NCBI GenBank assembly: GCA_048213135.1
Contig: PS015130.1
Location: 56,785-99,969 of the forward strand
DNA from: Reclinomonas americana ATCC 50394
Lineage: Eukaryota
Reading direction: 5' to 3'
DNA: 43,185 nucleotides
Positions 1,713 through 38,881 of the stretch are shown here, piece by piece. Position 1 is the first letter of the stretch, and every line of letters begins with the position of its first letter. A model generated the notes under the pieces. The model was not told the DNA's origin. It worked only from the letters and a program-made list of their open reading frames with translations, and did not search any database. Position numbers and translations under genes: made by a program.

Positions 1713-4700
1713 ATGTCGGAGCGCGCGGTGCGTGGTTCTGCGGGTCTACGTGTGTCTCAGAGAGACCACTCGCGCCTTGGTCTTACTCTGACTCCACGCG
1801 CAGCAATTCTCACTCACGGTGACTGCGCAATTCGGCACCGGCATGGTCACCGTGGTCTTGCACAACCTGGACGCTGAGTGTACGCTGCAACAGCTGGTCG
1901 ACACCATCACGGAACGCATCCGCGCCATCGTCAGCGATGCGACGCTCCAAGTCGAGTCGATCGACCATCTCGGCGATCTGCGTGAACTGAGCGACCACAC
2001 CCTCTTATCGCTGGGCGTCCACCACGGGGCTGAGTTGACGGCCGTGGTGATCGCTGCTCCAGCGTTGCGTCACAGTGGAAGCGAGTGAGTGGATTTCAGC
2101 GCTGCCTAACCACAGCCGTCTCGCAGCGAATATGTTGACAAGCAATCGCGTTCCTCCAGTCACGATTCTGCGCGCAGTGACGCAGGCGAGGATATGGGCA
2201 ACGGAAGAGAGCAGACAAAGCGCAGCGAGGTAGACTGTGTGTCTTGTCAGGCCGTGAAACGCGCCAACTGATGCCAACTGATGCTGACGATATTTTTTTA
2301 GCTCTCTCAGGAGTTGGTGGTTCGCGTCAAAATCCATGGACAGGCTGGTGAAGTGGAGGTGTGCGGACTGCAGCGTTCGTCCACTGCAGCGCAGTTTATC
2401 GCGGCCGCCACCGAGGCGTTGCGTGAGACGACTGGGAATCAGTCGTTGCACATTGTGGAGGTGCTGAAGCCCAAGGCCTTCTCAACAAGTGCCACCCTGC
2501 ACCGTTTCAACCCGGGCACCACGTTTGTGGTGAAAGTGGGCGAATCAACGTTGCGCAATGTTCCTTCCACAAGCTCGGGTGCGCATACTTTCTTCTCAAC
2601 CGACAATCCATCTCTGTCCGCAACAGCATCGCCGAGCAGCAGGCGAGGACTGGAGACACCTCCGAGTCCACTGCTGACACCGCTCATGCGGTAACTAGCA
2701 GCGCACGGTTTTCACACGGTGCATATGGGCGCAACTCTGCCAGTTTCACGTTCCAGGTTGGCGTCATCAACTATGGACGATTGTCGGCAGCGTTGGACAT
2801 TGTCACCGAGTTGCTGCGAATCCGACTGCAGCGACTCCTGCCCGACTTCTGTCGTGCATTCGACGTCAGAGTCACCGAGTGGTACAAGCCAGATCCGCCG
2901 CGTCGGTTGCGTTTTGTAGCTTGACAAAGAGAGGTGTGAAAAGGGGAGTATTGTCACCAACTAATATGTTATTCCCTGTGTGTATTGTGTCGCTAGGCTG
3001 CGGTCGCGCACTGGTCGAGTCATGGTTGTTGATGCTGCGGACAAGTTGGCGCTGCAGAAGTGGATGGATGAGTTTGAGGCCTCCGGACGCACATCGGCTC
3101 CCAGCTGCTCAACCTTCAGCTTCATGCTGGTGTGCTCCCTTCTCCTCCATGGTGGAGTCGACGTCGACGACAGCGATAGGCACGAAGTCCTCATGAGCGA
3201 TACTATCGAAGTGCGTTTCCATCCCCGCCGTCATGACAAGTGGAAAGAATGCAGCCCCACTGACAAGTGTATACTATCCGTGACACTTGCAGCGTGGGGT
3301 CATTGATCGCCTTCGTGGCTTCCGCAATGAGGTCGTGCATCGATCTGGCACACACAATTTGGCACCAGAGGTCAACCTTTGGCTGGGAACCGACGGGAGC
3401 AACGGACAGCTTGGTATGCTCTGCGACCTCCTCCATGTTGACGAACGAGTCAAGGCCACAGCGAGAGATCACTTGAAGCAAGTTCGGCATGGTTTGTGCA
3501 CCTGTTTGCGAATCGTTGACTATTTCATGGGCATGCCTGCTGAGTTCTAGTCGTCGTTTTCCTGCAGCCAATGTGCATATCAGCACTTTCGAGGAACACC
3601 TGCATCGACTGGCTGCACGAGAGCTCTCGTTCTATGAGCACGACGAGAGTGTGCGCAAGGACATGCAGATGTATGTGCCATTGCTGTGCTCACGTGAGCG
3701 TGACGTTGCGCCGAGGGAGAAGCTGCTGGACCTATTGACGGAAGCTGATGCTTTCCTCTCTGACACCAACACCACCCACCGTGTGCTGGTTCTGTTTGGC
3801 AACAGCGGTGCCGGCAAGACCACCACCATGTCGATGTTGGCCGAGCGAGCATGGCGACAGTGGCAGGAGGCAGGAGAGAGTCGACTGCGACGAGTGCCTG
3901 TGCGTGTGCCTCTTGGTGCTCTACGCAATGCCGACGAGAGATTGCTCGAGGAGGCGTTGGAGCGACTCTCACCCGAGTTGGGATTCAGTGAATCGGATGC
4001 GCGACGGTTGAAGGAGGAACCACTGCTGTTGTTACTGGACGGGTACGATGAGTTGTATCGTGGTGTGAATCTGTTTGTCAAGAACCGGTTGGATGCATCT
4101 GTGTGTCGCGACGTAAAGGTGATTATCACCTGCCGTGAGGATTACGCACTGACGGCATTGGGTGGAGCGGCACAGTATCGACGATGTTTTGCTCCCGTGG
4201 ACGCACGCGGACAGTTATGCATGCAGCAACTGATGGAGCGACACATTGCGCCGTTCAACAAGGAGCAGATTGAGGAGTATTTCGTGAGACTGGTGAGAGT
4301 GAGTGGTGATGATGACGATATCGGTGATGTGCGATGGTCAACTGCCGAGGAGTACATTCGTGCGCTGAAGAGTGTGCATGGGCTGGATGCACTGGTGTCG
4401 AATCCCTTCCTGCTTGCAGTGGTGGCTCGTGTGTTGCCGCAGTTGGTGGCGAGTGGTGTGCAGCGACCGACACGATGCGATGTGTTTGACCGATTCATTC
4501 GACAGTGGATTGTGAGGGAGCAAGAGAGGCAGATACGGCTCGGTGCGGATCGTGTTCCCAGTGAGGAGACGTGTCTGGCGTTCTGTGAGGGACTGGCACG
4601 GCTGATGCATGAGAGGAACGTGGTGCGCGTGGTGTCTGAAGAACGAGCTTTCGAAGAAGACATTGCCGAGTTTGGTGGTGCCCCGATCAGCTTCCGTCGA

Positions 4701-7415
4701 GTTGAAGAAGGACCATTTGACAAGTTCCTCGGCCGCAAGAACCAGCATGTGCGAGTGTGCTGTCCGATTGTGCGACGGTATGGGACGGATCAGTGGGGTT
4801 TCGTGCATCTGTCGTTACTGGAGCATTGTGTGGCACGGCATGTATTTGCATGGGAGACGTGGGATGAGGAGAGGCGATTGACGATTCAAGACGTGCAGCA
4901 GCACGTGCTGGCAGTGCGGCTGCTGAATGATCGACCGCCGCTAGTTGAGCAGATTGCCGAGGTGGTGCGACGGTCACCTCGATTGCAAACGAGACTGTGG
5001 GAGGTGATTAAGATGTCACGAGAGATGGATGAGGAGGAGCGAGTGGTGACGGCAGCAGCGAATGCAGCAACGGTGTTGTGTGTGGCACAAGTGCCGTTCA
5101 GCGGGCGAGATCTGTCGGGTGTGCGAGTGAGGGGTGCGGATTTGAGGGATGCGGTGATGCACAGGACGGTGTGGAGGGGAGCGGATATGCGCGGGGTGAA
5201 TATGTGCATGGCGTATGCGAGGGAGGCGGATTTCAGGGGGGCCGATGTGACGGGGATGAAGTGGCCGAGGAAGCCGATGGTGGGGCACACTGACTGCGTA
5301 ATGTCTGTCGCTGCCACTCCCGATGGTCAGCACATTATTAGCGGGAGTATGGACAAAACAGTGCGTGTGTGGTCTGTGACGAGCGGCCAAGAGGTGCGAC
5401 GGTTCGAGGGACATGTCGGAGGTGTGCAGTCTGTCACCGTCACTCCCGATGGACAACACATAGTGAGCGGAAGTGGGGACAAATCCGTTCGAGTGTGGTC
5501 ACTGATAAATGGACAAGAAATGCGACGGTTTGAGGGGCACATNNNNNNNNNNNNNNNNNNNNNNNNNNNNNNNNNNNNNNNNNNNNNNNNNNNNNNNNNN
5601 NNNNNNNNNNNNNNNNNNNNNNNNNNNNNNNNNNNNNNNNNNNNNNNNNNNNNNNNNNNNNNNNNNNNNNNNNNNNNNNNNNNNNNNNNNNNNNNNNNNN
5701 NNNNNNNNNNNNNNNNNNNNNNNNNNNNNNNNNNNNNNNNNNNNNNNNNNNNNNNNNNNNNNNNNNNNNNNNNNNNNNNNNNNNNNACCCACCCAGCGTG
5801 CCCCTCCAGTCGCCGCACTTCTTCTCCACGCTCAACGTACCACACGCGCACCGTCTCGTCATCACTCGCACTCACAATGTGCTGGCCATCAGGAGTGATG
5901 GCGACAGAATTCACTACATCAGTGTGTCCCTCCAACCGACGCACCTCTACACCGGTTGCCAGTGACCACACTCGCACCGTCATGTCCCAACACCCACTCA
6001 CGATATGCTGACCAGAGGGGGTGACGGCAACTGACCACACTTCCCGGGAGTGACCCTCCAACCGTCGCACTTCTTCACCAGTCGCCAGTGCCCACACCCG
6101 CACTGTCTTGTCCCAGCTGCCACTCACGATGTGCTGACCGTCGGGAGTGACGGCAACAGCGTTCACCCCACCGTTGTGTCCCTCCAACAGTCTCACTTCA
6201 TCTCCACTCACGAGCGACCACACCCGCACAGTCCTGTCCCCGCTCCCACTCACGATATGTTGACCAGCGGGGGTGACAGCGACAGAATACACACAGCTGG
6301 AGTGTCCCTCCAACCGTAGCAATTCGACTCCGCTCACAAGGGACCACACGCGCACCGTCTTGTCCCCACTGCCACTCACGACGTGCTGACCATCGAGAGT
6401 GACAGCGACAGACAGCACTCCTCCCNNNNNNNNNNNNNNNNNNNNGTGCTCCGTCGCCGTCACCCCCGATGGTCAGCACGTGGTGACTGGCAGTCAAGAC
6501 AAGACGGTGCGAATGTGGTCGGCGACGACTGGTGAAGAGTTGCTGCGATTGGTGGGACACTTTTTTGGAGTATGGTCTGTCGCTGTTACCCCCGATGGCC
6601 AGTACATCGTGAGTGGCGGTGATGACGAGACAGTGCGGTTGTGGTCAATCACGAGTGGAGAGGAGGTGCGACGGCTTAAGGGACACATTGGTGCGGTGCA
6701 CTCGATTGCCGTCTCTGCTGACAGCCAGCACATTATCAGCGGAAGTGAGGACAAGACAGTGCGAGTGTGGTCACTGACGAGTGGCGAGGAGGTACGACGG
6801 CTGGCGAGGCATACGGGAGAGGTGTACTCTGTCGTCGTCACTCCCGACGGTCAGCACGTCGTAAGCGGTAGTCAAGACAAGACCGTGCGAGTGTGGTGTC
6901 TGGCGCGTGTGGAGGAAGAAGTGCAACAGCTGGAGGGACACACTGGAGGGGTGAACTCGGTTGCCGTTAGTCCAGACGGTCACCACGTTGTGAGTGGGAG
7001 CGCAGACAAGACCGTACGTGTGTGGTCGCTGGTGAGTGGGAGAGAATTGCGACGGCTGGAGGGACACACCTGTCCAGTGCGGTCTGCCGTCGTCACTTCC
7101 GATGGTCAGCACATTATCAGTGGCAGTGACGACAAGACAGTGCGCATGTGGTCGCTGGCGACCGGTGGGGAGGTGCAAAGTGTTGGTGTCGGCTTTGTTG
7201 ATTTGCAAGCGGCAAGTGCGGACGACAGTCAATGCTTAGATGGACACACTGGTCTGGTGACCTCAGTCGCGGTCTCTCCAGACGGTTCGCACATCGTAAG
7301 TGGCAGCGCGGACATGACGGTGCGCGTCTGGTCGTGCCACCACCACCGTTCCGCTCTCTTGGACCGTGTTTTCGGTTCTTTCCTTCCTGACTTTGCCGAT
7401 TCTCTCGGAGAGTAG
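1713..7415 (+). CDS. NLR-like STAND protein: UBL-like, UBL-like, HEPN (DZIP3-type), NACHT NTPase, pentapeptide repeats, 14 WD40 repeats
   Basis: Phase-consistent exons 1713-1727, 1804-2063, 2127-2229, 2311-2690, 2744-2905, 2997-3210, 3293-3491, 3568-7415, all GT..AG. Walker A GNSGAGKT at 3798-3821, Walker B LLLLDGYDE near 4025-4052, IITCR, NPFLL, WGFVHLSLLEH, AAANAATVL followed by pentapeptides (about 5097-5265), then GH...WS repeats. HEPN RNEVVH at 3323-3340. The model requires re-orienting 5787-6425. The NACHT-WD40 part is the firmest and the UBL calls are weaker. Confidence 0.8.
5282..7335 (+). repeat. Array of high-identity 126-nt (42-aa) WD40 coding repeats; 5787-6425 is in minus orientation as assembled
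   Basis: Repeated GHxxxVxSVAVTPDGQHIVSGSxDKTVRVW units: 2 before the first gap, 5 in the inverted block, 7 after. Confidence 0.92.
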
Positions 7416-7522
7416 ACGCAGTTGGAGTAGTAGTATGATGTAGATTTTCTTCTTTAAACAGTGTGACAAGACGGGCTCAATTGACAAGTGGATATTGAGG
7501 AAGCGCGTCGGCTGGTCACACA

Positions 7523-7568
7523 TCACAGTGAGGGCAGTGGTAGAAGCCGTGTCTGTACACACACACAC

Positions 7569-7599
<31 letters not shown>

Positions 7600-8975
7600 A
7601 GTCAGCATGTGCCACGCCATGCACGCCGGCGGTCGCCACAGCATTCGTACCTGTGGGTCGTAGAAACTTGGCAGAGCAGCGGGCGATTCGGCAGTGGTGC
7701 TCGTCTTTGAAGGCGAGAATGCATTGGTTCCCTGTGTGCCCAAAGGCAGCGAGTGAGTGCAAGCGGGAAACGGGGCGGGCAGGATGCTTGTTGCCATACC
7801 AGTTGCGGCGGCAGCGACTCGCTTCCGGCCAACTTCATCCGCGACTGCGAGGGGGTGTGTACTCGCCAAAGTTAGCTGCAAGAACACGGCAAGCAGACGC
7901 CCCCCCCCCCAAAAAAAATATCGTCTTACCAGCGTCGATATCTCGACTTCTACGGGGGTCGGGAGCGAGACTGCTGTTGCCGTCGTCGCGGCTGCTGATG
8001 GCACCTCGCTGGCCATGGGGAACGGCGACGCGGTGGGCGATGAGGCCGTCGGCGAGGAGGCAGAGGGCGATGACGAGGAAGCTGCCGATGAAACTGACGA
8101 CGGCGAGGCGGAGTGGAGGCCCTTGGGGCGCAGTGCGGCAGCGGATTTCGACGACGCCTGTCGTTGCATAATGCCGGGTTCAAATGGGCCGGTCGCCACT
8201 GCGTTGCCCATGCTCATGAACGGCTGCAGTGCTGGTGAGTGTCCCACGCACGGGACCATGGGTCCGGTCATTGCTGGAGAGGGCATGATGTTGGGTGGCG
8301 GCAGAGAGAAGCCCGCGGCACCTCGCGCTGTCGGTAGCATCGGACTGAATCCGCGCGTCATCTGTCCCATGGCCAACACGCCACCACTGGTGCCGATGGT
8401 GCCGGCGCCGATGAAAGGCAGGGTTCCCGGGTTGAACGGCTGCTGCAGGTCGCCGAAGCCTCCTCCAAGCAGTTGCTGCTGCTGCTGCTGCTGCATCATG
8501 CCACTTGTGGCGCCGCCGAGAAACTGTGCGTACGACGACGTCGGCAACATGGCGAGCGGTTTTATCGCCGACGACGACGGCGGCTGCATCAACTGGTGCT
8601 GCAGTGGCGGCGGTGCCGGTGGCAACGGGAACATGTTGGCAGCGCTGAGATGTGGCGCACCGACGTTGATGGTTGGCTGCGGCCGCGCGCCACTCCACTG
8701 GCCAGTCCGTCTTCGTTTCTTGCGCTCGTTCTCGAACCAAACTGAGGGAATGGTGAAAAATGTGCAACCAATGAAAAAAACCCAAACACACAGCAAGTGG
8801 CTCCACGTACTGTTGATTGAGCGAGCGGAGCGCTGCAACTCGGCAGCCAGTACTTGCTTTCTCCGTTGATCCGGGTACTGAGCGAGTGGTGGGTACTGAG
8901 TACAAGCTCGACAACAAAGAAACAGACAAGGGACTGGAGGTCACAGTTCGCGAATGAAGACACGGAGAGGAAGAC

Positions 8976-18112: not shown

Positions 18113-19641
18113 ATGCGCGCGCCAACCGCTCTCCTCCTCTCCAGCGCACTGCTATGCACCTACTGCTTGCTACTACTGTTGCTGCTGCTGGGAGACACTG
18201 GTGAGTGCAATTTGATATCGCGAGAGTGGCGTCTTTGTGCAGCTCACGCTTGTTCACAGTGACGGCGACGGACCTGCCTACGTTTATCACTCTCGGCGAG
18301 GAGGTGCATGTGTCTGTTTGTGCATGTTGTTTTCGCGGCCATTCACTCACGCGTTTGTGCGCAGCGGCGGCGCTGTGTGTGCATGTTTGCCAGCGATAGC
18401 GAATCTCAAGTGGCCCACATTGCCCTCAGCATTCAGTGCCATCAGCGGTGGTGTCAGGCCGATCCCGACAGTGGGCGGGTGACCAACGTCTTTCGCTGCA
18501 CATTGCGCGATTACCCTCCCGACGACATTCGTCGCTTCCCCTCCAACGTCTATCGTGGTGCGTGGGAGCTGGAGAGCGACGAGGTGCAGGTGCAGGCGCG
18601 CGCTGGTCTCAACAATGTGTGCCCACCTGCAACCGACAATCTGCACAGCTGGGTGCGTTTGCCATGTGCGCGCTCCGGATCTGTTGTTGCCGGTGCTCAT
18701 TTTTTTTTTTTTTTGCGTTGCAGCTGATTGACGACGACGCCGAGATGCGTACGGTGTCGCTGGGCGTCTCGTTCCCGAATCTGCCGGAGGAGATAGCAGG
18801 CATCGCCGTGCGTAACTGGATGCAGGTGCCGATGAAGCTCCCCAACGCCAACGGCCTGCCGCTCGTCTCGTGCCTGATGATCACCACCGGTCGAGTGCAC
18901 CTGGCCATGCGAGCCGTGCACATGTTCACACAACAGACGTATCCGCGCCGCGAACTGGTCATCGTCACGCACGACGACGACTTGACAGAGTTGCAGTCGG
19001 CGCTGGCGGCGTTGGTGGGAACCGCAGGTGGCGAGGCGGATCGCATTCGTGTCAAACAGGTCGACCGACAGTCGGTGCCGACGCTTGGTGACATGCGCAA
19101 TGTGGCGGTGTCGGAGGCCGCCGGCGAGTTCGTGGCCACGTGGGACGACGATGATGTGTACGATCGCGATCGTGTGCGAGTGCAACTGATGGCGATCCTG
19201 GCGGCGGGTTCACGCGAATCGACGGTGGTCGGCTGCGTGCTGCATCGCGTGCAGGTTCGCCTGGCTGCCGATCTGACTGCCGACGAGGACGGTCGTGCGT
19301 TCTCCAAGGAGTCTGGCCTCGGCATTAGCCACCACCATCCGTGGGAGATGACCATGTTGATGTCCAAGGCACACATGGAGCCCTTCGCGTCGAAACAGCT
19401 GGGTGAGGACTCGGCGGCTTTGGAGGCCGTCAACCGCAAGTACTCGGTGGTGTGGCTGGACGACCCGGCACTGTACACATACTTTTACCACGGTGGCAAC
19501 ACGTGCAAGGCTCCGCACTTTGCACACATTTGGCGCTCCGTCTCCGTCACGTTCACCGGCACCGCTGCGACCCGGCTGGTGGCGCAGACGCAGAGAAGAG
19601 CCGGCCTCGACGCTGACTGGAACATTCCGCTGCGGCAGTAG
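18113..19641 (+). CDS. GT2 (GT-A fold) glycosyltransferase with signal/anchor and Cys-rich domain; divergent copy 0
   Basis: Hydrophobic leader exon, then RRRCVC...CHQRWCQADP...FRC...W...VCPP...W exon, then one long exon (18724-19641) with PLVSCLMIT, QTYPRRELVIV, TLGDMRN, GEFVATWDDDD (DxD), GED and YFYHGGNT. Confidence 0.85.
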
Positions 19642-28326: not shown

Positions 28327-30010
28327 ATGCGTGTGTTGTGGCAATTGCTGCTGTGTGTGGTCGCCGCCATTGTGCTGCATGCATGCGCAGTCGCGGCTGC
28401 CAACGGTGAGAATGTGGTGCGGTTTTGCGAAACATGCAAACAAACTGATTGCTCATGATCATGATGTGCATGCGCATATGCATGGCATGCGCATGCACGC
28501 AGACCGCAATCCATCCTTCACTACCACGCAAGACAATGAGGTGTGCATGTGTGTGTGTGTGCGCGCGTGCGTAAGTGTGCACTAGTATGTTCTCTCTGTT
28601 CGTGAGTGTGAGTGTGAGTGTGTGGTGTGCTTCGGAGTGGCTTTCGGTTTGCTCTAATGTGTGTCCGTGATGCAACAGCGACGGCGTTGCGTGTGCCCCC
28701 ACGACTCGGGAGTGAAGTCGCTGGATCCCGTGATGTGTGGCCAGCGGTGGTGCCAGGTCGACCCACTCACTGGCCGCACGCTGGTGTTTCGGTGCGCCTA
28801 CGCAGAATATCACAACACACTCTTCTACCGACGAGCCCTGGATGCAACGTACTACGGTGGCCTCGGCGCGTGGCGACTGGACAGAGATATACACGCGCAG
28901 CAGCAAGTCAACGAGGTGTGTCCGCCGGTTGACCATGATATGAGCGAGTGGGTGAGTGGTTGTGTTTTGTCGCAGCGTCACTTGCACGTTGGTTTTCTGT
29001 GTGTTCTCAGTTCGCACTCGGTGTCGCGATCGCTGCTTGCAGCTGGTGGCGAAGGGTGGTATGTGAAGCTTGAAAGCACACACTTTATATCGCTGGTTTC
29101 GGTCTGCCGACTCAGTTGCGCTGCGTGCACAGGGTTGCAGAACATCGGCTATCTCACCGTCGTGCCTACTGCGAAGCCGGCAGTGGAACCGACGCCACAG
29201 CCGCTGCCGTCGTCGACAGTGCCAATGGTGTCGTGCTTGCTGGTGACGCGAGGCGGTGCGCGTCGGAGTATGGCCATGCGCGCCGTGTACATGTTCATGC
29301 AGCAGACACATCCGCGGCGTGAGCTGCTGCTCGTGACGGAGACCGAGCATGTCGCGGAGCTCGCTGCAGCACTGGAGGAGCTTGTGGGCGACGCGGCGGA
29401 GCAGCAAGTAGCAGGCGTGCGGTTGATTGGCGCCGAGAGACACGAGGCGCCGACACTCGGCGACCTGCGCAACCTGGCGATTCGAGAGGCCATCGGCGAC
29501 TACGTGATGCAGTGGGACGATGACGATGTGTACGACCGCGACCGCATCCGCGCGCAGCTCCACATTCTGCGCACTCTGCAGAGCGAACGCCCCGCCGACG
29601 CTCGGCCACTGGTCGGTGTCGTGCTTCGCCGGGTCCTGCTGTACGCCCCGGCTCTGGATGTCCACTCGGTGTCAGTCTCGTATCGTCGAGTGTGGGAGGG
29701 CACACTGTTGTGCCTGCGGTCACACATGACACGCTACTCGTCGGATGCACGCGGCGAAGACACCGCCGCGTTGGTCAAGTTGCAAGAGATGCACGATGTG
29801 GTGATGATAGACGCGCCCATACTCTACTTGTACACCTTCCACGGCAACAACACGTGGAACGACGAGCACTTCCACAAGCACGTGCAGAGTGCGTCGGTCA
29901 CCTTCTCTGGCCACGTTGCAGAGTTGCTGCTGGCGCAAGCCAAGGAACGCGCCGGACTCGACGACAACTGGGAGATCCCAGCTGCAGCATACCGTAATAG
30001 ACGTAAATAA
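28327..30010 (+). CDS. Signal peptide, Cys-rich domain, GT2 glycosyltransferase; tandem copy 4
   Basis: Same five-exon structure (micro-exon 29043-29058), same motifs. Confidence 0.88.
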
Positions 30011-31840: not shown

Positions 31841-31942
31841 ACGGTGACGATGGTGAAGGCTGTGCGCGATCGCTCACATCGTCTTGACAGGCTCAGCGGT
31901 GGGGCAACGTCGGTCGGTCTGCGTCCCACACAACGATTTGCG

Positions 31943-32905
31943 ATGGAGAGCGCGGAGGTCACCCGCGAACGTGCCCGAGCGCGCAACACCGAGTCGTCGC
32001 TGCGTCGTGCCGAGCATTATGCCGCGGTGCGAGCGACGAGTTTTGTGGGAGCTGTCGACGAGAGCGCCCGATTTCATACCGGCGAGTCATTTTCCAACTC
32101 GACCGCCGGGAGCAGAAAGAGAGAGCGTGGTGGTGATGATGATGATGGGGGCAGCGGCAGCGGCGGGGAGGAAGAAGACGACGAGCCTGTGGAGAAGAAG
32201 AAGAGGCGAGTGCAGTCGTCTCGTGAGTTGTACGACGAGCTCGTGTCGAGCAAGAAGAGAGTGGACGAGGAGGAGACGACGGCGATCGCGACAACGACGA
32301 CGACCAGTGTGCAACAGACTTGGCGCTGCGAGGTGTGCAACGTGGAGGTGGCCGCGGAGGCGCGGGCGGGCCACGAGAGGAGCATCCTCCACTTGTTTTC
32401 CGTCAATCAAGGTCTGTCCCCCCAACTCCACACCCTCGCTTGCACTCTCTCAGTTTCTTTCTCACGCGCTGCTTTTCTTCTTCGTGGGAGCACAGATAAG
32501 CCGCCCGCTCGGCACTTTGGCGTGAGCGGCCGTGGATACAGCATGCTGCACCGCATCGGATGGGACGGCGAGGGCGGACTCGGTGCGCGCGAACAGGGGG
32601 TTGTGGAGCCCGTCAAGACTCGCTTCAAGAACGACCGGCTGGGACTCGGACATCGTGCAACGCTGCAACAACCGGCGCGTGTAACACATTTCCGCTCGGC
32701 GCACACGGAGAAGATGGTGCGCCAGGTGTCGCAGGAGCAGGAGGTGGCACAGGGTCGTCGGACGGCGGCCAAGGTGGCCGCCGATGTTGCCGCCGCCAAG
32801 GCTCAGGCTCGCGTGCCGAATAAGCGCGACAGGGAACGCTTGTGGCAGCGAGAGAAAGCGCGTGAGGCGTACCTGCGTGAGCTTCTCTACCACGACTACT
32901 GTTGA
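31943..32905 (+). CDS. G-patch domain protein with CxxC...H...H motif (like the GPANK1 C-terminal region)
   Basis: WRCEVC...HERSILHLFS, then RGYSMLHRIGWDGEGGLGAREQGVVEPV...KNDRLGLG (G-patch). One in-frame GT..AG intron near 32412-32496. An alternative start lies at 31850. Confidence 0.85.
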   Translation: MESAEVTRERARARNTESSLRRAEHYAAVRATSFVGAVDESARFHTGESFSNSTAGSRKRERGGDDDDGGSGSGGEEEDDEPVEKKKRRVQSSRELYDELVSSKKRVDEEETTAIATTTTTSVQQTWRCEVCNVEVAAEARAGHERSILHLFSVNQGLSPQLHTLACTLSVSFSRAAFLLRGSTDKPPARHFGVSGRGYSMLHRIGWDGEGGLGAREQGVVEPVKTRFKNDRLGLGHRATLQQPARVTHFRSAHTEKMVRQVSQEQEVAQGRRTAAKVAADVAAAKAQARVPNKRDRERLWQREKAREAYLRELLYHDYC

Positions 32906-34918: not shown

Positions 34919-36742
34919 ATGTTTTGGCTGAGCATTCTGTGCGCCCTGCTCGTCGCGTGTGGCGTGCTGGCGCTGATCGACCAGTGGACGGTGTGCATTA
35001 TTCACACTCGCACACACGCATGCATCTCCTCACCTGCACACACACACACACACAGCGTCGCAAGTCTGTGGAGAATGCATCGGCGACGGCCTCTGCTTCC
35101 GCAGCCAAGCCCACGCACGATCAAAAGGCGTTCCGTCGCTTCCGGCTGACGTACCTGGTGGCGTTCTTCTTGGCCTTTGGTTCGCTCCCTGTCGCGCGAT
35201 ATGCAGCAGTGAGCTTCCCGCCATTTAATCGCCATATGCATTCGCCAGGTGCCGACTGGCTGCAGGGTCCCTACGTGTATCAGCTGTACTCGGCGTATGG
35301 CTTCTCGCGCGGCACCATTGGTCTGCTCTTTATCGCCGGCTTTGGCTCGAGCTTCCTGTTTGGCACCGTGTTTGGATCGCTGGTCGATGTCTTGTTGCGT
35401 TGTTGCATGTCGACTTCTCCGGCCCACGCTGCGTCGTGGCATTGACACGCTTGGTGGGGCAGCGGGCGACGGGCAGGCGCGTTGCTGTACTGTGCGCTGT
35501 ATGCAGTCGCGTCGTTGACCAAGCACGTCAAGCTGTTCCCGGTGCTGCTGATCGGACGAGTGCTGGCCGGTGTCGCCACCTCGCTCCTCTACAGCGCTTT
35601 CGATTCGTGGATGGTGGCCGAGCACCACCAGCGCAAGTTCTCCACCGAGTCGTTGAGTAGCACGTTTGCGGTCGCCAACATCGGCAACTCGTTGGTGGCC
35701 ATCACCGCGGGCGTCGTCGCGTATTTTGTGCAGGCGTCATTCGGTGTGTCGCCCACCTTCTCTTCCATTCGTCTTGGTGAGCGCGCCCCACTGAGTGTGC
35801 GCGTGCAGGTCTGGTGGCGCCATTCGACGTGGCGGCCGTGCTCCTGGTGTTGTGTGCCGTGGTGGTGGCCATGTACTGGAACGAGAACTACGGGCAGGCC
35901 TCGCACAGCAGTCTCCAGCTCATTCGTCGCGCCCTGGTCTTGTCGCGCGCTGGTACACAAAGCACATACTCCACTTTTTTCCGATCGTCTTTCCCCTCCC
36001 TCTTACGTGTGCGACGAAAAATCACAGATTTCCGCATCTGGTGCCTGGTGGTGGCCGACGGACTCTTCCAGGCCTCCATGTTCACCTTTGTGTTCATGTG
36101 GACACCGGCGCTGGAGGAGTTGGAGCCGGAGATCCCGCATGGTGTCGTCTTCTCGACGTTTATGGTGGCCTGCATGCTCGGCTCCATGATCTTCAAGTTG
36201 CTGCGCTTGCCCGTTGGTCTCGGATTCTCGGCGGTCCTTGCCGTGGCGTGCCTGTGCATGATTGTGTCGACGGTCACCACGGTTTGTGTTGCTCCGAATA
36301 AGTGTGTGCGCGCGCGTTGCTGGACAACTCTGACCCACTGCACGCAGAGTGCCGTCGTCATGTACGCGGCCTTCCTCGGTTTCGAGGTGTGCGTCGGTGC
36401 ATTCTGGCCGTCGGTCGGCGTGTTGCGCAGTCGCCTGTACCCAGACGAGTGCCGCTCGGCGTTTATCAACATCTCCCGTTTGCTCATCAATGGCTTGGTG
36501 GTGTCCCTGCTGTGCAATGTTGCGCGGTGGCCACGAGAATGTCTTTGTTGTTGTCGTTGTTGTCTGCTGACTCGTGTGCTCGTGTCAGATTGGTGCACTG
36601 CAGACGCACGTGGTGTTCCTTCTCGGGAGCGTCTCGCTCGGTGTCTCCCTGGCTGCCTCGCTCGTGCTGCTCGGACGTGGCGACGAGGCCAAAGAGTCGC
36701 ATGCACCACCCGTCAAGGCCAACGACAAGAGCACCAAAGTAG
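34919..36742 (+). CDS. MFS transporter, MFSD5/MOT2 (molybdate-anion transporter) family
   Basis: GADWLQGPYVYQLYSAYGF, LFIAGFGSS, GSLVDVFGRR, GRVLAGVATSLLYSAFDSWMVAEH, APFD, WNENYG, SMFTFVFMWTP, PHGVVFSTFMVACMLGS, FEVCVGAFWP. Seven GT..AG introns. Confidence 0.9.
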
Positions 36743-36779
36743 AATAAACCAGATCTCCCTTCGTACAAACATCGTCGTT

Positions 36780-38881
36780 TTACCGGAATGCAGTCATGGT
36801 GCGTGTCGACAGTTCGCTGAGAATGTCGTGCGACACCTGACTGCACCAGGTGAGAGCTGTCAACAGAAAAACTGTGAGTTGAACGACAGAGAGAGAGTGA
36901 GGCGTCGACAATGGCACACCAAATTGTCTCAGTCGCGGGAGCATGGCCACCATTTTCCGCACACCATCTGGAGACGGACATGAGAGGCGACAACAACAAT
37001 AGTGAAGAGAGGGGCAGGCTGGCACTCACCATTGGTCACGTGGTGATTCCACGAAAAGTTCACCCTGTGACACCCAGTATGATGATCAGAAAAGGAATTG
37101 TGTTGTGCTGCTGACGAATTGCACTCACATGCGTAGCATTGAGCAGCGGCTTGCAACCTCGAGGAAACCAGCTTCGCCAACCTGCTTGCAACCCTCCATG
37201 ATCAACTCTTGCAGTCGCGGACAACTCGCCGCCAGCACCCCACAGAACAGATCCGTCACCTGCCCGCCAGCGGAAAAATGAAAAAAGCGACGAGCACGCC
37301 ACGCAACGCACACGCAGCACGCACCGGACACCAACTGACGTCCAGCATGGTGAGCTGCGTGCACGCTTCGACCACCTGACACAGACTCTCGTCGGTGAGA
37401 TCGTCGCAGCGACCGAGGTCGAGGTGCGTCAGATGCGTCAGGTGCTTCATGTACGCCGCCCCCACATCGGTAAGGTGGGGTGCCACACGCAGTGCGAGCC
37501 ACGTGAGTTCCGTACACCGCACGCTGAGCATCATGATCAACGTGTCTGTCGTGCATTGGGGTCGACGTCACCGAGTGAGGCACACTGCAAGCAGCACCAA
37601 CAAAAGGCAGACGGCACAACTCACCGTCCACACACTCGCACCAGGAGAGATCGAGCTCGGTGAGCTTGATAAGCTCCTGTGGAATCTCTGCAATGGCGTC
37701 GGTGTCGATCATGTCGCACTCGGGGAGGTACAGACGCGTCAAGCACGGACACTTCTTGCAGAGGGTGTTGATCGCCGTGTTGGTGACCTGCATGCAGCTT
37801 TTTTTTGGTACAAAACCACTCAGCGAGCGACTGCGAGTGCATGTTCTGCACACCTGACAGCCACGCAAGCTCAGCGTGCGCAGCGTCGCACCACTGCTGG
37901 ACACCAGCAGGCGAATGCACAGAGTGCTGACGGCGCGCACGCCATCCACCTTGACCTCACGCAGCGCGGTGAATCGCTGAAACATATCCGCAAACGCAGC
38001 CTCCTCGTCCATCCGTGTGCAAAACGACAAGTCAAGCGACTGCAGCTGCGCGTGTAATCTCTCATTGTTGGCCAGGCTCCACACGGGCGCGCACTCCAGT
38101 TGTGAACACTGCAGACAACACATCGTGGTGAGTATGCCACGAGCAGCAACAGCAGCAGCAGGATTCGCGCTTCATCCGCAACTTGCACCAGCGACAGGCT
38201 CGTCAGCGACGCCGGCGCCGATCGGCAAAAAAGCGAAGCGCCCGCATCGCTCACATGAGAGCAGGCCACCATTTCCAGCGTGGTCAGCGACGAGCACACA
38301 CGCGCCACAGTGGCCACAAACAGGTCATTGACAGTCTCGTCGCACCCACGCAGTCGGAGTACCGTCAGTGAGCCACCCATGGTTGTCGCCAGCATGCGCA
38401 GCGGTGCATCCGGGGCCGGGAAGGCCACACGCAAGTGGTGCAACTGCTTGCAGCTCTCGGCAACAACACCGAACACCTCGGCCGACGCCGCCACCTCGCC
38501 CGACAGCCACAGCTCCTCCAGTCCCTGCTCGCCGAGCTCGCTCACCAGTCGTTCCACTGCCATATACGCAGAACAGCGGTGAGGGAGTGAACCAGTGGAC
38601 TCTTGTTTGAGACGGACGCAACATGCAGAACGACTTGTCTCGGTCACCTATCGCACACAGCAGTGAGTGAATGTGATGATCAGACAACTGAATCACGATG
38701 TGCAAACGCAACTGTCGGTGGTAGGCGAAGCGACATCACACCTCCACTGCCGCACCGTTCGCGCACATGCTCCAGCACGTCCTCATCGATCTCGCAGCAG
38801 CACGTCAGGTTCGGCTCGGTGGAATCATTGGCCTCCACACACAGATCGACACGCTGCACAGAGCATTGTGTGTATGGATGC

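Follow-up and report, generated by a model that had tools for sequence, protein, structure and literature searches.

A multi-exon NLR-type gene of Reclinomonas americana with a NACHT-pentapeptide-WD40 body and a putative, divergent HEPN-type head

Which protein is specified by the interrupted coding region at positions 1713-7415 of a 43,185-nucleotide stretch of contig PS015130.1 from Reclinomonas americana ATCC 50394 (hereafter the window, meaning the whole of that stretch), and could the domain that precedes its NACHT module be a ribonuclease? An earlier note, made from the letters alone, had proposed a NOD-like receptor (NLR) in which two ubiquitin-like (UBL) domains and an intron-hidden HEPN RNase are followed by NACHT, pentapeptide repeats and WD40 repeats. 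The multi-exon NLR-type gene is real. Its product is best explained, with a probability of about one half, as one large switch protein of the STAND (signal transduction ATPases with numerous domains) or NLR type, composed of two beta-rich modules, a divergent HEPN-type RNase head, a NACHT domain, a pentapeptide spacer and at least 14 WD40 repeats.

The body agrees with what the earlier note had announced, and Pfam recognised all three of its parts (Table 1). The NACHT domain scores above the family cut-off and has both its Walker A and its Walker B motif intact, as is proper to a STAND NTPase; in a nine-row alignment (A1, the window sequence and eight relatives) residues G77, S79, G80, A81, G82 and K83, together with D157, G158, Y159, D160 and E161, are invariant. 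A pentapeptide-repeat spacer separates this domain from the WD40 array, in which at least 14 repeats are visible (2 + 5 + 7). Between 5283 and 7330 the array keeps a strict period of 42 residues, with pairwise identities of 51-71%, mostly 61-71%. Repeat-homogenised WD40 arrays of this kind are familiar from fungal NLRs of the HET-E type. In the best explanation these nearly identical repeats would build two propellers.

The DNA of the window, with about 58% GC, short GT-AG introns and scaffold gaps, is eukaryotic in appearance, and the exon structure proposed for the gene is self-consistent. The joins at 2690/2744, 2905/2997, 3210/3293 and 3491/3568 are all in frame, each with a GT donor and an AG acceptor; the four introns that they remove on the way to the NACHT exon measure 53, 91, 82 and 76 nt, and the codons are completed across them, in order, as CG/T, CG/G, phase 0 and G/CC. 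Exons A (2744-2905), B (2997-3210) and C (3293-3491), which spell the pre-NACHT domain, occupy three different frames, and the domain is indeed hidden from a view of single open reading frames (ORFs); the peptides quoted for these exons in the earlier note were all recovered, where it had placed them, in the computed spliced translation. Composition agrees with this structure, GC being 0.42-0.52 in three of the four introns against 0.56-0.58 in the exons (the intron at 2691-2743 has 0.57), and a CTRAY branch-like site lies 12-32 nt upstream of the AG in five of the seven introns proposed for the whole gene. When codon usage was scored as log-odds per codon, with the confirmed NACHT/WD40 coding sequence of this gene as reference, the best-scoring frame was the proposed one in all three exons, marginally so in exon C (0.05). 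Such independent support for coding is modest but consistent, and the joins, including the fusion of the head to the NACHT in the messenger RNA, are predictions made from the DNA. No second copy of the spliced protein was found by tblastn within the window, apart from the WD40 repeats.

The spliced pre-NACHT domain has 192 residues. With its length of about 190 residues, its mostly helical character and its single RNxxxH, it is most likely a divergent metal-independent RNase of HEPN type. The motif of these enzymes is Rx4-6H in which N, D or H, a polar residue, directly follows the arginine (PMC3710099 section 6), and the commonest form in oyster HEPN domains is Rx4H with N in that place (PMC9646362). 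RNEVVH, the sole Rx4-6H of the domain, has precisely this composition. An RNxxxH occurred in 1.9% of 20,000 shuffles of the domain, and its frequency in the six-frame ORFs of the window is 0.021 per 192 residues; an Rx4-6H of any kind was present in 91% of the shuffles, the domain being rich in arginine, and is for that reason uninformative alone. In HEPN domains helix 3 ends with the motif (PMC3710099 section 7). In an AlphaFold2 model of exon C only, of low confidence (predicted local distance difference test, pLDDT, 57), helices span residues 2-18, 26-30, 37-46 and 51-65, and RNEVVH, at residues 11-16, falls near the end of the first of them and before the loop 19-25. Among the 30 neighbours that a language-model search of the Atlas listed for exon C, rank 3 is a DUF4559 cluster (16% of members), rank 4 a HEPN_Swt1 cluster (28%) and rank 7 a HEPN_DZIP3 cluster (10%), all with sub-threshold scores of 0.78-0.81 that make them leads only. 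DUF4559 is the family that covers the CXorf38 HEPN proteins. The domain also occupies the place in which NLRs carry their effectors, and a HEPN domain N-terminal to a NACHT is an arrangement on record (PMC3710099 Table 1 and section 16, PMC9646362, PMC8260672).

Two further features were noted by eye. A hydrophobic segment, FSFMLVCSLLL, lies 42 residues before RNEVVH, much as LDLAALLRVL lies 37 residues before RNRWAH in the bacterial Swt1-type domains collected here, a likeness missed by the profile methods. HEPN domains fold as a four-helix up-down bundle, about 100-120 residues in length, and helices 2 and 3 are frequently separated by an insert; a conserved acidic residue, typically in the form Ex3[KR], is found upstream of the motif in helix 2. 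Exon B has E-A-S-G-R after its ...KWMDEFEAS helix, a pattern too short to carry meaning.

Several results weigh against the assignment to HEPN. Taken singly, exons A, B and C gave no Pfam match to HEPN at E<=10, PF18738 included; they gave no family of note in PHROGs, PADLOC or NCBIfam, exon A having none at E<=10, and nothing relevant by phmmer among PDB sequences. Exon C had no match at E<=0.001 among 1,835,955,588 representative proteins, none of 83 word-sharing candidates reached E<=0.01, and tblastn against phages returned 16 records, all with E>=2. The Atlas neighbours of exon B are clusters of PH domains (0.76-0.80, at noise level) and not of HEPN; its matches to GIDE in Pfam (E 0.02) and to a designed ankyrin, the best PDB sequence match (E 0.033), are likewise noise. 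A hidden Markov model (HMM) of HEPN_Swt1, built by ourselves from 12 bacterial PF18731 domains (present in 12 of the 401 genomes searched), gave -0.3 bits on the spliced domain with 18 residues aligned, all in the motif region, and hhalign gave a probability of 0.34% for the spliced domain against the same profile. PF18738 itself (HEPN_DZIP3), sought as a source of reference sequences, was found in none of four bacterial genomes and in none of 14 control genomes. A complex prediction in which exons A, B and C were entered as separate chains scored 0.00 and returned no verdict, which is evidence neither way.

The weight of these negatives depends on their reach. The homology searches at exon level employed fragments of 53-71 residues, the spliced whole being compared only with the HEPN_Swt1 profile and with the ORFs of the related loci described below; PF18738 has 144 positions and a cut-off of 27 bits, a single exon spans at most about one third of it, and the filters of HMMER hide weak matches. 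Because little beyond the motif is conserved in HEPN families (PMC3710099 section 6) and no exon covers more than that third, the exon-level negatives weigh little. The HEPN identity of the pre-NACHT domain is plausible but unproven, with a probability that we place a little over one half. Of the effector head announced in the earlier note, the spliced domain before the NACHT and its well-formed RNxxxH stood; a match of the single exons to a HEPN profile or fold was not obtained.

A possible, if doubtful, reading keeps the gene model and takes the pre-NACHT domain for an unrelated, lineage-specific helical adaptor or effector, perhaps with a small beta part, in which RNEVVH arose by chance. 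It would account for the fact that all the homology tests run came out negative, for the PH-domain neighbours and the ankyrin match of exon B, and for the ease with which an arginine-rich domain yields some Rx4-6H; the N-terminal heads of the closest relatives are also diverse and often without a family match. The rarity of RNxxxH in the shuffles and its place at a helix end before a loop speak for the HEPN reading instead, as do the three HEPN-labelled or HEPN-linked clusters among the neighbours of exon C, and the negatives themselves rest on short fragments or on another HEPN family, in a superfamily where little but the motif is conserved.

The joining of head and body could be questioned in another way, by supposing two genes: an upstream one, beta-rich and helical, that ends at the stop 3548-3550, and a separate NACHT-pentapeptide-WD40 gene that begins at the ATG 3489-3491. 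The frame of exon C is indeed open as far as that stop, and the frame of the NACHT has its ATG at 3489 after a stop at 3474-3476. However, GT opens the segment 3492-3567, and a pyrimidine tract and CAG mark its acceptor; it is poorer in GC (0.49), and each of the two flanking frames gives it negative codon log-odds (-0.15 and -0.16). Two genes would moreover have to overlap, whereas splicing restores the frame exactly. The division into two genes is improbable, and a single gene with the intron 3492-3567 is preferred.

Against the single gene it must also be counted that the region 1713-7415 is broken by two runs of N, at 5543-5786 (244 bases) and 6426-6445 (20 bases), and that the 639-base piece enclosed by them has five WD40 repeats that read in minus-strand direction. 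The minus-strand repeats are 63-71% identical to the plus-strand ones. The piece 5787-6425 is most likely a small contig that was scaffolded in the wrong orientation; the strict periodicity and high similarity of the WD40 repeats are the reason for the assembly gaps, and with the minus-strand piece the assembled gene is unreadable from end to end. That the inversion is real and the locus a decaying or rearranged copy, whose plus-strand ORF from 3477 stops at about 6011 in antisense WD40 and leaves no working sensor, has the minus-strand assembly of the piece and the end of that ORF at 6011 in its favour, but is very improbable, given the runs of N on both sides (a usual mark of small contigs scaffolded in unknown orientation), a frame fully open across five repeats, the poor assembly of arrays 63-71% identical and the intactness of all remaining exons.

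Table 1. Exons, domains and motifs assigned to the NLR-type gene, in window coordinates; log-odds are codon-usage values per codon.
Feature	Positions	Strand	Basis or remark
First exon with start codon, 5 codons (proposed)	1713-1727	+	76-nt GT-AG intron to 1804, phase 0
Exon, beta-rich module 1 ('UBL1')	1804-2084	+	frame with the best coding log-odds, 0.25
Candidate mini-exon, 103 nt, charged Ser-rich linker (uncertain)	2127-2229	+	restores the frame from 2084 to 2302; log-odds ambiguous (0.03)
Exon, beta-rich module 2 ('UBL2') and Ser/Pro-rich tail	2302-2690	+	open frame; coding log-odds 0.19
Exon A, pre-NACHT domain, begins with the INYGRL... helix	2744-2905	+	in-frame GT-AG joins; log-odds 0.29
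Exon B, pre-NACHT domain, contains ...TFSFMLVCSLLL...	2997-3210	+	in-frame joins; log-odds 0.11
Exon C, pre-NACHT domain, carries the candidate catalytic motif	3293-3491	+	in-frame joins
RNEVVH motif	3323-3340	+	residues 11-16 of exon C
Large exon: pre-NACHT linker, NACHT with helical/winged-helix part, pentapeptide, WD40 repeats 1-2	3568-5542	+	ORF and Pfam
NACHT domain	3780-4289	+	PF05729, 37.9 bits (cut-off 26.7)
Walker A, GNSGAGKTT	3798-3824	+	pattern GxxxxGK[ST]
Walker B, LLLLLDGYDE	4023-4052	+	pattern hhhhD[GA]xDE
Pentapeptide-repeat spacer, between NACHT and WD40 array	5097-5264	+	PF00805, 27.8 bits (cut-off 20.2)
WD40 repeats 1-2	5283-5542	+	Pfam
Five WD40 repeats, reverse orientation	5787-6425	-	WD40 6e-58, 5 stretches; frame open
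Seven WD40 repeats, short C-terminal tail, stop TAG 7413-7415	6446-7415	+	WD40 1.9e-79, 7 stretches

The large exon runs into the first assembly gap. At the other end of the gene the direct joins 2084/2302 and 2084/2311 are both out of frame, and a mini-exon was proposed between the two beta-rich modules. The intron that would precede it, 2085-2126, starts with GTGAGT, has CTAAC 17 nt before its AG and ends in CGCAG; its 42 nt make it shorter than the remaining six proposed introns (53-91 nt). The 5' part of the gene model is uncertain because the coding score of the mini-exon is ambiguous.

The two modules upstream of the pre-NACHT domain had been designated 'UBL-UBL', a name that found no backing in Pfam, PDB or Foldseek. 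No Pfam family rose above its cut-off in either of them, the best for module 1 being OTU1_UBXL (E 0.058); the PDB sequence search gave no match for either, and BLASTP detected no similarity between the two. The AlphaFold2 single-sequence model of module 1 (pLDDT 64) has the order strand-strand-helix-strand-strand-strand, which is compatible with a beta-grasp, and its best Foldseek match had an E of 0.094, with nothing at E<=0.001.

From where does the body of this protein come? A search with the NACHT region (510 residues) found 12 longer proteins with E from 1e-30 to 2e-9 and 25-30% identity, three of them bearing a Mycoavidus name, four being EukProt rows and five NCBI, JGI or Logan records; with three further NACHT relatives in the 'near' length range the database relatives total 15. 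Neither the protein itself nor a close paralogue appeared in the NACHT-region searches, where the best identity was 30-31%, and the collection seems to be without the proteins of this organism. PF00805 figures in the Pfam lists of at least seven of the 12 longer relatives and also in that of P0013, and the Pfam output for five full-length relatives was dominated by WD40 families. The protein of the window has its pentapeptide between the NACHT and a WD40 array of about 14 blades, and its resemblance to these proteins extends over the NACHT region. The chassis is homologous, as the sequences show, to NACHT-pentapeptide-WD40 proteins found in intracellular bacteria and in some other eukaryotes, which carry different heads. 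In a quick, unfinished tree the NACHT of the window groups with P0007, P0008, P0010 and P0011 (SH-aLRT, the Shimodaira-Hasegawa-like approximate likelihood ratio test, 89), a grouping that is unsure as long branches meet there.

Scans of nucleotide collections told where the chassis is abundant. With the NACHT region as query, a metagenome scan gave 255 pattern matches and a first scan of genome contigs 74, none of which was a relative. With the alignment of the relatives, 182 of 567 candidate stretches in genome contigs were relatives, and 79 loci were kept (L001-L079). The majority of them (64) are in records titled Mycoavidus, and the other 15 are distributed among Chlamydiae, Legionellales, Coxiellaceae, Myxococcales (one) and Gammaproteobacteria (several metagenome-assembled genomes); the named bacterial relatives among the 79 all belong to records whose titles indicate intracellular or symbiotic lineages. 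Nine of those 15 (L025, L026, L033, L038, L039, L044, L049, L058 and L073) are packed into about 82 kb, 1,139,017-1,221,087, of one chromosome record, and are a tandem expansion. The 79 loci contain 2,203 ORFs, none of which resembles the spliced head (best E 0.13).

The heads of the relatives differ from the one described here and from each other. A SAM head was confirmed on P0007, and the Pfam accessions precomputed for the EukProt rows include SAM and TIR; P0004, a relative labelled Mycoavidus, has a head of 480 residues without any Pfam family, and the N-termini of P0009 and P0012-P0015 have no R[NDH]x3-5H head like that of the window. The presence of other heads on the closest relatives of the chassis fits with a swappable effector position. 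It is a tentative and rather unlikely extension of these results that an orphan, intron-split HEPN-like RNase and two beta-grasp-like modules have taken the place of the usual TIR-type head on a chassis otherwise expanded in intracellular bacteria. Such a head swap, if true, would mean that effectors are exchanged on a sensor chassis that passes between hosts and their intracellular bacteria, and that there is a HEPN lineage too divergent for any profile to see its pieces.

If the head is of HEPN type, the parts of the protein suggest how it might operate. A trigger would be bound by the WD40 propellers, upon which the NACHT would exchange nucleotide and oligomerise; the N-terminal HEPN-like domains, brought together in pairs, would form a composite active site, and cellular or invader RNA would be cut, leading to growth arrest or death of the affected cell. 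A role in immunity or cell suicide would follow this course. The passage from sensor to RNA cleavage, which the earlier note had also put forward, holds as the standard interpretation of a HEPN-NACHT architecture, and it is not new (PMC3710099, PMC9646362).

The HEPN-NACHT design principle is already in print, and the HEPN-NACHT fusions described so far come for the most part from animals, one unicellular relative of which has an expanded HEPN family. What is particular here is a chassis with a pentapeptide spacer that is nearest to that of intracellular bacteria, the pair of additional N-terminal modules and a head of extreme divergence. Were the head a working HEPN RNase, the design of sensing, oligomerising and cutting RNA would be extended to a eukaryote whose NACHT body is nearest to that of intracellular bacteria, and the gene would be a compact model for the recombination of NLR chassis and effector heads across domains of life. 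Were it not HEPN, the locus would add to the NLR-like genes whose N-terminal domain is uncharacterised.

Other features of the surrounding DNA, and of the loci collected during the searches, deserve a brief mention. (CA)n microsatellites are located at 7556-7600, just downstream of the gene, and at about 830-880, where they adjoin an upstream N gap of 581 bases (882-1462). A minus-strand open frame at 7516-8937, of 473 codons, with low-complexity stretches rich in Gln, Ala, Ser and Pro and no Pfam family, may be a neighbouring gene or an artefact of high GC. The other coding pieces of the window, 18400-19638, 28658-30007, 31841-32902 and 35781-36980 on the plus strand and 37125-38168 on the minus strand, are unrelated to the NLR-like gene; they comprise two frames resembling glycosyltransferase family 2 (25.0 bits, and 20.8 bits, the latter under the 23.3-bit cut-off), a G-patch domain (42 bits), part of an MFS_5 transporter (94 bits) and an LRR frame. 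Among the bacterial HEPN_Swt1 matches (L080-L091), five (L080, L081, L082, L086 and L087) lie in open frames of 1,050-1,223 residues and may be HEPN-STAND NTPase fusions of the type described in the 2013 review.

Comparison with known systems places the gene between several groups. Fusions of DZIP3-type HEPN with NACHT are tabulated for various animal lineages, and expansions of the HEPN family for Nematostella, oyster and Capsaspora (Anantharaman et al. 2013, PMC3710099 Table 1). More than 50 HEPN-NACHT proteins are reported for the pearl oyster; oyster NACHT proteins in general have C-terminal LRR, TPR or WD40 repeats, those of the HEPN-headed ones being unspecified in that account (PMC9646362). 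In several cnidarians HEPN is given as the most frequent partner of NACHT (PMC8260672). No paper on a protist HEPN-NLR was found in the literature search. The likeness to the animal proteins with a DZIP3/hRUL138-like HEPN (PF18738) consists in an Rx4H domain at the N-terminus, its R followed by N, which stands directly before a NACHT and C-terminal repeats, and in the predicted role, cleavage of RNA in immunity or cell death. The differences are the lack of a PF18738 match from the single exons, the two extra beta-rich modules upstream and, with respect to animal NLRs, a NACHT body that is nearest to bacterial and EukProt NACHT-pentapeptide-WD40 proteins.

Across the greater part of the 510-residue NACHT region the protein is 25-31% identical to the NACHT-pentapeptide-WD40 proteins of intracellular bacteria, and the Walker A and B motifs are invariant; P0002, P0003, P0004, P0009 and P0013 have a pentapeptide family in their Pfam lists, and the consensus of alignment A1 runs on into WD40. 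Unlike this gene, those bacterial relatives have no introns and carry different heads. Bacterial NACHT proteins have been catalogued by Kibby et al. (bioRxiv 10.1101/2022.07.19.500537), where HEPN and pentapeptide repeats occur among the NACHT architectures and HetD/E-like NACHTs are held by endosymbionts of fungi. The EukProt proteins P0007, P0008, P0010 and P0011 are eukaryotic and have the NACHT-pentapeptide-WD40 chassis in common with the protein of the window; in contrast to it they carry SAM/TIR heads and not an RNxxxH helical domain, and their identity is only 25-29%. Fungal NLRs of the HET-E/HET-D type ('clade 18' in bioRxiv 10.1101/2022.07.19.500537) are similar in having a NACHT followed by an array of highly similar WD40 repeats, and dissimilar in that Pfam found no HET domain in the exons scanned here and in the pentapeptide spacer of the present gene. 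Fungal names are absent from the records of the 15 database relatives.

A more remote parallel is provided by RNase L and Ire1, with their HEPN of KEN type, and by the bacterial HEPN-STAND proteins. In RNase L the sensor and the switch are ankyrin repeats and a pseudokinase. There is no sequence relationship of these proteins to the one described here, and the sensor and switch modules differ. Fusions of HEPN with STAND NTPases are described for bacteria (PMC3710099 section 16). What the predicted protein would share with all of them is the arrangement itself, in which a sensor and a switch based on oligomerisation or dimerisation activate a HEPN RNase with a catalytic arginine, a polar residue and a histidine (PMC3710099).

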